This document shows, piece by piece, positions 12,898-15,235 of a stretch of 64,000 nt of DNA; the first letter of the stretch is position 1, and every line of letters begins with the position of its first letter. The position numbers and the translations under genes are program-made. The notes below the pieces were generated by a model. It was not told the DNA's origin. It saw only the letters and a list, made by a program, of their open reading frames with translations, and ran no database searches. The DNA comes from Escherichia coli (GTDB lineage: Bacteria > Pseudomonadota > Gammaproteobacteria > Enterobacterales > Enterobacteriaceae). The stretch lies in the NCBI RefSeq assembly GCF_022846255.1, contig NZ_AP025682.1, one strand, 5' to 3'.

Positions 12898-13884
12898 TTA
12901 TAGTTTTACGCTATCTGCCGGAAAAATCACCCCAGTCTGGCGGCGGATCTCGGTCAGCAGTTTGGCGGTGATGCGACTGACCGCCAGCCCAGGATGATCC
13001 ACCAGATGCTCATCCACCAGTTCAGCAAACAGCTCTGCTTCGTAGAGCATGGTATTAATATGCTGCGGTTGGGTCAGATCCTGCATCTGGCTGCCACGCG
13101 GCACAAAACACACTTTCTGGCATTCAGACAGTTTTTCAATCACCAGCGATCCCGCTTCGCCCTGAATCTCGCTTGCCAGGACAGAATCGCTCACTTTTGA
13201 GTGCTGCAACGTAACGCTGAAATCACCGTAATCCATCACCACCACGCCGTGGGCATCCACACCGCTTGCCAGCAAACTGGCGGTTGCCTGCACGTTTTTC
13301 GGTTCACCGAATAATGCCACCGCCGACGCCAGGCAGTAAAAGCCGATATCCATAATCGAACCGTTGGAGAATGCCGGATTGAAGGTGTTGGGATTCTCTC
13401 CGTCCAGGTAACGCTGATACCGCGAGGAATACTGGCAATAGTTGAAAAAGACTTTACGCAGTTTGCCGACTTTCGGCAGCGCCTGGCGTAACAGATGAAA
13501 GTTCGGCAGGTAGGCCGTTTTAAATGCCTCAAACAGCACCACCTGATTTTCCCGCGCACAGGCAATGGCGGCATCCACTTCCGCCAGATTCGACGCCAGC
13601 GGTTTCTCGCAAATCACATGAATTTTGTGACTAAGGAAAAGTTGTGTCTGGGAAAAGTGCAGGGAATTCGGGCTGGCAATATACACCGCGTCAATGGCAT
13701 CGCTTTCTGCCATCGCTTCCAGCGACGTAAACAGATGCTCGACAGAAAAATCATTGGCGAAGTGCTGGGCCTGTTCAAGACTGCGGGAATAAACGGCGGT
13801 TAACTTGTATTTACCGCTCTCATGGGCGGCCTCGACGAACTGGCGAGTGATCCAGTTCGTACCAATCACAGCGAAACGTATCAT
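12898..13884 (-). CDS. ygjR: Gfo/Idh/MocA-family NAD(P)-dependent oxidoreductase YgjR
   Basis: ORF 12898..13902; likely start ATG 13884 (MIRFAVIGTNWITRQFVEAAH...), Rossmann motif AVIGTNWI; 328 aa. Confidence 0.85.
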   Translation of the reverse strand: MIRFAVIGTNWITRQFVEAAHESGKYKLTAVYSRSLEQAQHFANDFSVEHLFTSLEAMAESDAIDAVYIASPNSLHFSQTQLFLSHKIHVICEKPLASNLAEVDAAIACARENQVVLFEAFKTAYLPNFHLLRQALPKVGKLRKVFFNYCQYSSRYQRYLDGENPNTFNPAFSNGSIMDIGFYCLASAVALFGEPKNVQATASLLASGVDAHGVVVMDYGDFSVTLQHSKVSDSVLASEIQGEAGSLVIEKLSECQKVCFVPRGSQMQDLTQPQHINTMLYEAELFAELVDEHLVDHPGLAVSRITAKLLTEIRRQTGVIFPADSVKL

Positions 13885-13962
13885 AACGCGTGGATACTCC
13901 ATAAAGGGATTCTCTCGTCAATGTAGCACGCCTTTTTTATCTTCGACGTGCGCAGATACGCA

Positions 13963-14655
13963 TTATTCTTTCGCCGGACAGCCATGCTCACTAAACGGCC
14001 CAATCATAACCAACGGCCCGAGATATTTCGGCTGGCGATGGAGGATTTTTGCGTCAATCACCGCGCTGACACGAGCGAGTTTCTCCCGCAGTTGAGTATA
14101 AAAACCGTGCTTCATATTGAGGTCTGGCGCGTTAAAACCGATAGCGTCGATGCCGTATTGCTTTGCCAGCCAGATGGCGCGTTGATTATGAAATTCTTGC
14201 GAGATAATGGTGATATGGTTTTCACCAAACACCTTTTTGGCACGCACCACCGAATCAAGCGTTGAGAATCCGGCATAGTCGCAGAAGATCACTTTTGCTG
14301 GTACGCCTTTAGCGATCAAGGCCTGCTGCATTCCTGACGCTTCATCGTAATTTTTACGTCCGTTATCGCCACTAACTAACAGCCATTTCACTTTTCCGGC
14401 GTGGTACAACGCTGCTGCGGTATCAATACGTCGGGTAAAGTAGCGATTACCCGGCCTCGCCCCCAGCAATAAACCCACGTTCCGCGCCGGAACTGCGCTG
14501 ACATCGCTCCAGGTCAGCTGCTTGCTGGTGTTGACCATAACGCGATCGGCAATAAAAATGGTCGCTCCTGCTATAAGCAACAATAAACAGCCAATTTTAA
14601 GAGTCCGGCGAGAAAAACAAATACGGAGAAGAAGGCGGGCAAATGCGCGCAGCAT
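13963..14655 (-). CDS. ygjQ: DUF218 (SanA/YdcF-like) protein YgjQ
   Basis: 230-aa ORF with N-terminal TM segment ([19 protein letters not shown]) followed by DUF218-like domain. Confidence 0.85.
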
Positions 14656-14731
14656 GGTCGTTATCCTTAACGAAAGGGAGGAGGTCGATTTTAGGCGCTA
14701 AAGGAGGAAAAAATAACGCCTGACATCATTT

Positions 14732-15235
14732 TCAGATTTTGTCCTGCCCAAGCGACAACTGCGTTAGCCACAGCCGGGTGTCGAACTCAAGCTGGTGGTA
14801 CTGCGCTTCCATATGACAGCACAACTGGTAAAACGCTTTGTTATGCTCTTTCTCCTTCAGGTGCGCCAGCTCGTGCACCACGATCATGCGCAAAAACGGT
14901 TCCGGCGCGTTGCGAAACACGGTAGCGACGCGGATCTCTGCTTTTGCTTTCAGCTTGCCTCCCTGCACACGCGAAACGGCAGTATGTAAGCCGAGCGCGT
15001 TTTTCAGCACATGGATCTTGTTGTCATACATCACTTTATTGATCGGCGGGGCATTGCGCAGAAACTGATTTTTAAGATCCTGAGTATATTGCCAGAGGGC
15101 TTTATCAGTGGCGTAGTCGTGTGTTCCCGGATAACGTTTTGCCAGCACATCGCCCAGACGCTGTTCGTTAATCAGCGTTCGCACCTGGGAAAGTAGCTGC
15201 TCGGGATAACCCTGAAGATAAGTAAGATTGCTCAT
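14732..15235 (-). CDS. ygjP: Putative zinc metallohydrolase YgjP (DUF45/WLM-like, HEXXH motif)
   Basis: ORF 14732..15271; start ATG 15235 ([20 protein letters not shown]...); contains [11 protein letters not shown] with an HExxH signature; 167 aa. Confidence 0.85.

Follow-up and report, generated by a model that had tools for sequence, protein, structure and literature searches.

Likely independence of ygjP, ygjQ and ygjR, three adjacent genes in a conserved enterobacterial gene order of Escherichia coli

The DUF218 family, to which the E. coli protein YgjQ belongs, is linked to envelope integrity, as the first-pass annotation of the DNA analysed here had correctly stated, and in triple and quadruple DUF218 deletion strains the loss of ygjQ adds no phenotype. 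The relevant item in the literature on DUF45/COG1451, the family of the neighbouring YgjP, concerns a protease of Bacillus cereus that was identified from its mass fingerprint, the rest dealing mostly with unrelated DUF45xx names. YgjR, encoded next to YgjQ on the other side, was taken into an aldehyde-reductase screen, the text of which reports no value for it. All three genes have long been annotated in K-12 (b3085-b3087), their family assignments were previously public, and finding them is in that respect ordinary. Here, we analysed ygjP, ygjQ and ygjR in a 64,000-nucleotide (nt) stretch of E. coli DNA (NZ_AP025682.1; the window), which is reversed in orientation relative to K-12. We consider it likely that the three are independent neighbours, co-inherited within a conserved enterobacterial backbone in which the order would be fadH, rlmG, ygjP, ygjQ (where present), ygjR, alx and sstT, and that they are not one functional module. 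This reading is based on gene structure, families, conserved residues, fold, synteny, selection and promoter conservation; the substrates, the cofactor, the metal ligands and the direction of ygjQ gain or loss are what we infer.

One possible hypothesis for why three co-directional genes with spacers of 76 and 78 nt lie between rlmG and alx is that they form an operon-like module serving a common role in envelope or nucleotide housekeeping. The first-pass annotation had suggested a shared role, possibly of this kind, from their conserved adjacency, and its description of the arrangement agrees with the coordinates in the list of open reading frames (ORFs). The tie of the DUF218 family to envelope biogenesis would be in keeping with such a role, and so would the name "UTP pyrophosphatase" on YgjP homologues. 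To weigh the hypothesis, we compared two sets of loci. A genome scan anchored on YgjQ, which used exact 8-residue patterns, gave 10 loci, mostly from Escherichia; the YgjP-anchored loci consisted of named homologues and an 80-locus metagenome sample ranging from 98% to 57% YgjP identity. Neighbour proteins were mapped onto the loci by tblastn.

The full arrangement, with rlmG divergent from ygjP and with ygjQ, ygjR, alx and sstT following ygjP in the same direction, was seen in several Escherichia species, Salmonella, Cronobacter malonaticus and one Kluyvera sp. contig. The trio thus reaches beyond Escherichia, which agrees with the conserved neighbourhood expected by the first-pass annotation, but elsewhere ygjQ is missing or the trio is split. 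In Enterobacter kobei, Kluyvera georgiana and 10 metagenome loci, ygjR follows ygjP directly; in four metagenome loci, a convergent CLC/CBS channel gene stands between ygjP and ygjR; Kosakonia and one further locus (L032) have ygjP with neither of the other two; and in Superficieibacter co-directional MoxR-ATPase/VWA genes, 4.3 kb and 7.6 kb in extent, lie between the three, so that both spacers tolerate unrelated multi-gene insertions. Among the 16 enterobacterial-type loci of the YgjP-anchored metagenome sample, ygjQ is present in one, which is E. coli-like. It is absent between ygjP and ygjR in 14, and the remaining locus also lacks ygjR. The module hypothesis is further weakened by the distant loci: none of the 41 loci with YgjP identity of 67% or less has RlmG, YgjQ, YgjR or Alx near YgjP, no co-occurrence was seen outside the Enterobacteriaceae, and the order is not conserved beyond what the backbone shows. 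Furthermore, the synteny of fadH, rlmG, alx and sstT, which have known and unrelated functions, is as strong as that of the trio or stronger. Because these unrelated flanking genes are equally syntenic, we attribute the adjacency of the three genes to backbone conservation within the Enterobacteriaceae and see in it no signal of functional coupling.

The frequency of the direct ygjP-ygjR arrangement raises the question of whether these two genes constitute an older functional pair, in which a hydrolase and a dehydrogenase would share one cytoplasmic substrate, with ygjQ as an unrelated passenger. At 73-87% YgjP identity, the architecture seen most often is ygjR directly after ygjP, about 52-99 nt apart, and both products are predicted to be cytoplasmic. 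We nevertheless judge this to be quite unlikely. The spacer between the two genes is almost entirely occupied by ygjR's own conserved promoter, ygjR is absent beside ygjP in Kosakonia and L032, and the CLC gene intervenes in the four loci mentioned above. No Gfo/Idh/MocA gene, the family to which YgjR belongs, was found beside any YgjP at 67% identity or less, and ygjR-alx and rlmG-ygjP are equally conserved pairs.

The transcription signals also bear on the module hypothesis. As would be expected of an operon, the three genes lie on the same strand with short spacers and without an internal terminator: the terminator scan called none in the ygjP-ygjQ or ygjQ-ygjR spacers, and the only strong hairpin follows ygjR. 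This hairpin has a minimum free energy of −27 kcal/mol and a z-score of −4.3, none of 200 shuffled sequences was equally stable, and it is the probable 3′ boundary of ygjR transcription. The ygjP-ygjQ spacer contains a modest hairpin (fold z-score −2.2) with no U-tract, together with a TAAAAT element and an AAGGA ribosome-binding site; TAAAAT and AAGGAT are common to Escherichia and Salmonella. What was not found is a single upstream promoter, since ygjR has its own start and promoter and ygjP is given as its own operon. Shimada et al. 2014 listed the TTGCCC/TATACC pair for ygjP and TTTTCA-18-TATCAT for rlmG as separate constitutive sigma-70 promoters and reported ygjP as an operon by itself. 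In the window, the rlmG hexamers are located at 15278-15307 on the plus strand, and at the ygjP promoter both hexamers and GAGTATAC are conserved across genera. The Reg-Seq promoter set also includes ygjP. A consensus scan called an inverted repeat just upstream of ygjP terminator-like; this repeat overlaps the ygjP promoter, and the overlap explains the call better than a terminator does. According to these data, ygjP is transcribed from a constitutive sigma-70 promoter of its own, back to back with rlmG.

For ygjR, the approximately 65 nt upstream of the gene are conserved whether ygjQ or ygjP precedes, and we, therefore, consider the ygjR promoter to be ancestral and independent of the upstream gene. 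When the published ygjR start is placed in the window with an offset between K-12 sequence versions that we take to be 1,977 bp, it would precede the ATG by about 30 nt, near 13914, and lie just downstream of TGCTACATT. Transcription of ygjR would then proceed from its own conserved extended −10 promoter. Besides the transcription start, a sigma-S chromatin immunoprecipitation peak has been published for ygjR, expression of which is not rpoS-dependent, and a CpxR study features ygjR alone of the trio. Independent promoters, which the first-pass annotation had named as an observation that would speak against a shared role, are thus present in part: ygjP has its own sigma-70 promoter and operon, and ygjR its own start and promoter. 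Together with the frequent absence of the middle gene, the equally syntenic flanks and the different predicted compartments of the products, they leave the shared role deduced from adjacency without support, and we regard an operon-like module as unlikely.

Several observations weigh against independence of the three genes. With no convincing terminator after ygjP or ygjQ, and with the sole strong hairpin placed after ygjR, co-transcription by read-through may occur. Where ygjQ is present, it always occupies one site and is co-directional with its neighbours, with spacers of 24-160 nt; a fixed arrangement across genera in which YgjQ is 58-73% identical could reflect selection for the arrangement. 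Likewise, ygjP and ygjR are commonly adjacent in the Enterobacteriaceae, about 80 nt apart. The sampling must also be considered: the metagenome sample carries no taxonomy, absence of ygjQ was scored at the ygjP-ygjR site only, and the ygjQ frequencies are biased because ygjQ loci were partly found by a YgjQ search.

We also asked whether the three genes and their annotated starts are sound. Of 5,426 complete E. coli genomes, 5,419 carry RefSeq annotations for all three, and the gene lengths in the window are identical to those of K-12. All three are under purifying selection (dN/dS, the ratio of nonsynonymous to synonymous divergence, 0.01-0.14), and they are, therefore, functional genes and not chance ORFs. 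A longer ygjP ORF with a GTG start extends to 15271; because the ygjP −10 element falls inside this extension, the annotated start is supported. An upstream ATG at 13902 would lengthen YgjR to 334 amino acids (aa). This triplet is ACG in most other aligned sequences, whereas GGAG-N12-ATGATACGTTTCGC is conserved at the annotated start, with the ribosome-binding site and the start invariant, which supports the annotated ygjR start. No PADLOC defence-protein model matched YgjP, YgjQ or YgjR at E ≤ 0.001. In E. coli AREA_492 (NZ_CP123335.1), IS4 is inserted in ygjR, and two Gfo/Idh/MocA fragments are annotated around the transposase; ygjR is thus dispensable, at least in that isolate.

The product of ygjP carries the motif HExxHx5H at residues 121-131, in agreement with the zincin-type signature noted by the first-pass annotation. 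YgjP scored 39.5 bits with the YgjP-like/DUF45 profile of Pfam (PF01863), for which the cut-off is 26; only residues 93-142 are matched, and these correspond to the C-terminal part of the model. Conservation of H121, E122, H125 and H131 is 90% or higher in alignments of 28 and 34 sequences, and F135, Y136, C139, Y146 and R154 are also nearly invariant. The structure combines a mixed beta sheet with the HExxH helix and is superposable on solved zincins, and hence has the zincin metallopeptidase fold. Its nearest folds are the minigluzincins, SPRTN and Wss1. YgjP scored below threshold with the WLM profile (PF08325, 24.3 bits versus 26) and with the SprT-like profile (PF10263, 18.6 versus 25.6); it is related to WLM and SprT-like proteins and is no member of either by curated cut-offs. 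The M48 family profile did not match YgjP, and the name given to the product by RefSeq, "M48 family metallopeptidase", is, therefore, a loose one. A sequence search of solved structures with YgjP gave no match. The protein has no hydrophobic segment typical of a transmembrane (TM) helix and is predicted to be cytoplasmic. The short YgjP-type family has few members (607 representatives at E ≤ 0.001 among 1.84 billion) and its occurrence outside the Enterobacteriaceae is patchy, including Rubrivivax, Psychrobacter, Shewanella and Fibrobacterales.

One could envision that YgjP is tied to RlmG, its divergent neighbour, as a zincin-fold hydrolase of RNA or nucleotides in the manner of YbeY. This would account for the UTP (uridine triphosphate) hydrolysis attributed to YgjP: the label "UTP pyrophosphatase", borne by JGI homologues, is said to go back to a 2017 in vitro metabolomics screen that found weak hydrolysis of UTP. 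However, the best structural matches of YgjP are peptidases, with no nucleotide pyrophosphatase among the top structural matches, and the peptidase-type Glu after the first His is kept. Moreover, the gene pair is split by 0.2-4.3 kb in loci L028-L031, L037 and L039 and in Kluyvera georgiana, and no locus in which YgjP identity is 67% or lower contains it. We, therefore, find a partnership with RlmG very unlikely. The fold points instead to a cytoplasmic peptidase-like zincin, which fits poorly with both the "UTP pyrophosphatase" and the "M48" labels. YgjP would be a soluble, single-domain, minimal zincin in which H121, H125 and H131 probably bind the metal and E122 would serve as the catalytic base; most likely, it would hydrolyse a cytoplasmic substrate at a peptide or amide bond. 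To our knowledge, YgjP has no known substrate, protease activity or DNA binding, and UTP hydrolysis in vitro is the one activity reported for it.

The distant YgjP loci were also searched for another partner. Neighbour clustering in the 41 loci showed no family recurring in a fixed position, and four distant homologues with recorded contexts likewise had no shared neighbour. The candidates considered and rejected were MerR and pilin-like genes (L018), a thiamine pyrophosphate enzyme (L019) and an HSP70-family gene (L022). In the last case, a metagenome-assembled genome of a gammaproteobacterium (L022 6001-7943), the gene for a 56%-identical YgjP homologue overlaps the downstream HSP70-family gene (467 aa) by 4 nt, an overlap suggesting that the two are translationally coupled in that lineage; no other examined locus showed the pairing.

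YgjR contains the Rossmann motif that had been noticed earlier, which here corresponds to the GFO_IDH_MocA N-terminal domain (PF01408, 111 bits); the C3 domain (PF22725) was matched with 42 bits. YgjR has EKP, a motif of Gfo/Idh/MocA proteins, at residue 93 and DIGFY at residue 179. Full-length matches were obtained to the uncharacterised Streptococcus pneumoniae structures 2ho5/4iq0 (E 1e-49) and to the dihydrodiol dehydrogenase 2o48 (E 2e-20), in which DLGIYC aligns with DIGFYC of YgjR and AARD with YSRS. In this family, the D-x-x-x-Y motif is catalytic and the Arg after beta 2 is a cofactor determinant. YgjR has D-x-x-x-Y in place of D-x-x-x-H, and the NADP-type Arg after beta 2 (NADP, nicotinamide adenine dinucleotide phosphate), and so belongs with the branch like the dimeric dihydrodiol dehydrogenase. 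Its scores were far below the cut-offs of all NCBIfam equivalogs for named sugar dehydrogenases, among them D-xylose 1-dehydrogenase Gfo6 (80.9 versus 350), IolG (70 versus 355) and UDP-GlcNAc 3-dehydrogenase (44.4 versus 450). There is no hydrophobic segment typical of a TM helix, and ygjR has a dN/dS of 0.03-0.10. From its sequence, YgjR is predicted to be a cytoplasmic and probably NADP(H)-dependent dehydrogenase or reductase of dihydrodiol-dehydrogenase type, which would oxidise or reduce a sugar or a cyclic diol.

YgjQ contains one hydrophobic segment (residues 18-36, nt 14548-14604), preceded by six K/R and no D/E, and its match to DUF218 (PF02698) is at residues 64-176 with 75.7 bits versus 27.6; these results bear out the N-terminal TM anchor and DUF218 domain proposed before. 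By its N-in charge bias, YgjQ is predicted to be anchored in the inner membrane with the DUF218 domain in the periplasm. The published topology, itself a prediction, agrees with a TM-anchored protein. Because YgjP and YgjR are predicted to be in the cytoplasm and YgjQ in the periplasm, the different compartments count toward independence of the three genes. YgjQ is 40% identical to K-12 SanA (b2144) over 203 residues. It scored 162 bits with the SanA equivalog (NCBIfam NF008092), the cut-off of which is 363, and is, therefore, a SanA paralogue and not SanA. T132, H156 and E191 align with T125, H149 and E182 of SanA and are invariant in six sequences, so that YgjQ has, as far as its topology is correctly predicted, the N-terminal anchor, the outside DUF218 domain and the Thr/His/Glu of a SanA-like protein. 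Since the Thr/His/Glu required by SanA are retained, YgjQ, held in the inner membrane by its single N-terminal helix, probably carries out SanA-like chemistry on a periplasmic envelope precursor. A sequence search of solved structures with YgjQ gave only chance-level matches to periplasmic binding proteins. The 44-47% matches in the YgjQ-anchored scan were set aside; they are neither YgjQ nor SanA but a third paralogue.

The evolution of ygjQ differs from that of its neighbours in rate. Nonsynonymous divergence (dN) is 2-7 times that of the neighbours, with an omega of 0.07-0.14; compared with ygjP, it is raised about 2.5-fold in Salmonella as well as in Superficieibacter. Identity of YgjQ to the window protein is 97, 89, 73, 69-72 and 58% where that of YgjP is 98, 97, 88, 88-90 and 81%. 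The divergence of YgjQ, then, follows that of the neighbours but is steeper. We considered that ygjQ might be a recent insertion in Escherichia and Salmonella and rejected this possibility, given that ygjP-ygjQ-ygjR occurs in Cronobacter and Kluyvera sp. and that the divergence tracks that of the neighbours at a steady higher rate. It is more likely that ygjQ is an old, fast-evolving gene that has been lost several times than that it was recently transferred. Its presence differs between two contigs that are both labelled Kluyvera. We suggest that ygjQ is a redundant and dispensable SanA paralogue, present or absent at one fixed site, where it would have been lost or gained repeatedly.

Variant forms of ygjQ were observed as well. 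Some E. coli carry frameshifted alleles (P0339 and P0350, 180 aa), in which the frame changes after about residue 144; N-terminally shortened clusters occur (P0309 and P0311, 171 aa); and YgjQ of E. fergusonii (P0295, 219 aa) lacks 11 internal residues. Artefacts of gene calling or of contig ends may account for some of the short forms. Relative to the window, synonymous divergence (dS) of ygjQ is above that of the flanking genes in E. albertii (L006) and E. whittamii (L007); in E. albertii, it is 0.86 for ygjQ, 0.41 for ygjR and 0.19 for alx. The raised values may reflect old alleles or recombination at ygjQ.

A last scenario would reunite the three products across the membrane in an unrecognised route for salvage or damage control of envelope precursors, centred on uridine-nucleotide sugars: YgjR would oxidise or reduce a sugar or uridine diphosphate (UDP)-sugar in the cytoplasm, YgjP would cleave a uridine-nucleotide-linked intermediate, and YgjQ would act on an undecaprenyl-linked periplasmic product. 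If this were true, YgjP would cleave a pyrophosphate or an amide bond, which would fit the reported UTP hydrolysis, and lineages without ygjQ would depend on SanA or another paralogue. We think it extremely unlikely that the trio cooperates in this way. The description of the three genes as having no assigned pathway still holds, and the useful outcome of the analysis is a negative one, namely, that the adjacency of ygjP, ygjQ and ygjR is no evidence of a shared pathway. Since adjacency is uninformative here, work aimed at finding their functions should treat the three genes separately. Table 1 lists the features of the locus, including the promoter that we regard as ygjR's ancestral own.

Table 1. 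Positions of genes, spacers and transcription signals in the window, and of the gene blocks inserted in the corresponding spacers of Superficieibacter electus (L008)
Feature	Sequence	Position	Strand	Remarks
ygjP coding sequence	Window	14732-15235	minus	167 aa from annotated ATG; from ORF list
ygjQ coding sequence	Window	13963-14655	minus	230 aa; from ORF list
ygjR coding sequence	Window	12898-13884	minus	328 aa from annotated ATG; from ORF list
rlmG	Window	15320-16456	plus	divergent, upstream of ygjP
alx	Window	11649-12614	minus	downstream of ygjR
ygjP-ygjQ spacer	Window	14656-14731	minus	76 nt
ygjQ-ygjR spacer	Window	13885-13962	minus	78 nt; contains ygjR promoter
ygjP promoter	Window	15261-15290	minus	TTGCCC (15290-15285), 18-nt spacer, TATACC (15266-15261); in 84-nt divergent rlmG/ygjP spacer
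ygjR promoter	Window	13928-13920	minus	extended −10 TGCTACATT; GGAG ribosome-binding site at 13900-13897
Long hairpin	Window	12821-12883	minus	begins 15 nt past ygjR stop; ahead of alx leader
Block 1	L008	5761-9663		in ygjP-ygjQ spacer; AAA ATPase, DUF2201 metallopeptidase/VWA, LRV/HEAT-repeat protein
Block 2	L008	10697-18158		in ygjQ-ygjR spacer; SWIM zinc finger, DUF5691, AAA_5, DUF5682, VWA CoxE-like

Both blocks of Superficieibacter electus are co-directional MoxR/VWA-type clusters with no assigned role, and the locus serves there as an insertion site. We looked to the insertions for a clue to function, and they offered none.

The surroundings of the trio showed further variation. From 10081 to 16456, the window has a dS of 0.11-0.19 across genes relative to K-12 (L001), which is unusually divergent for E. 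coli. The closest of the 5,426 complete genomes is only 98.8% identical to the window, the lineage of which is, therefore, not closely represented among them. At 16456-16727, a clean deletion of about 330 nt relative to K-12 has taken away the promoter of higBA along with almost the entire toxin gene, higB. Its junction is at the short direct repeat TGCTACATACGTGAAGTTA, and the antitoxin gene higA (16727-17143), still intact, is now without its toxin partner. Two other E. coli loci (L002 and L003) also lack higA, which together with the higB deletion indicates that the toxin-antitoxin site is variable. Between rlmG and higA (16465-16593) are two repetitive extragenic palindromic (REP)-type elements, which scored 33.5 and 27.7 bits with naRNA4 of Rfam, below the gathering score of 59.5. 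On the other side of the trio, the alx leader (12615-12900) contains two terminator-like hairpins, at 12744-12717 and 12667-12638. A 401-nt Rfam search of this leader found no riboswitch family even at E ≤ 10, which was unexpected for what we take to be a yybP-ykoY-type manganese/pH-responsive element.

How the three products compare with described proteins can be put as follows. YgjP resembles the minigluzincins (proabylysin 4jiu, projannalysin 4jix and selecase 4qhf), Wss1 and SPRTN with only 14-20% sequence identity, and it differs from these minimal zincins in having about 60 additional residues at its N-terminus, which form a helical region. YgjR shares EKP, D-x-G-x-Y-C and the Arg after the second strand with 2ho5/4iq0 and with 2o48 (dimeric dihydrodiol dehydrogenase/NADP-dependent D-xylose 1-dehydrogenase); 2ho5/4iq0, its closest solved relative, is itself unassigned in function. 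For YgjQ, which resembles SanA and more broadly the DUF218 proteins ElyC and YdcF, no phenotype was found upon deletion of its gene, either alone or in combination with sanA, ydcF and elyC, and the protein is without the C-terminal extension of SanA. What YgjQ and SanA have in common is the single N-terminal TM anchor, the DUF218 domain (predicted to be periplasmic in YgjQ), and the Thr, His and Glu residues that are needed for SanA function.

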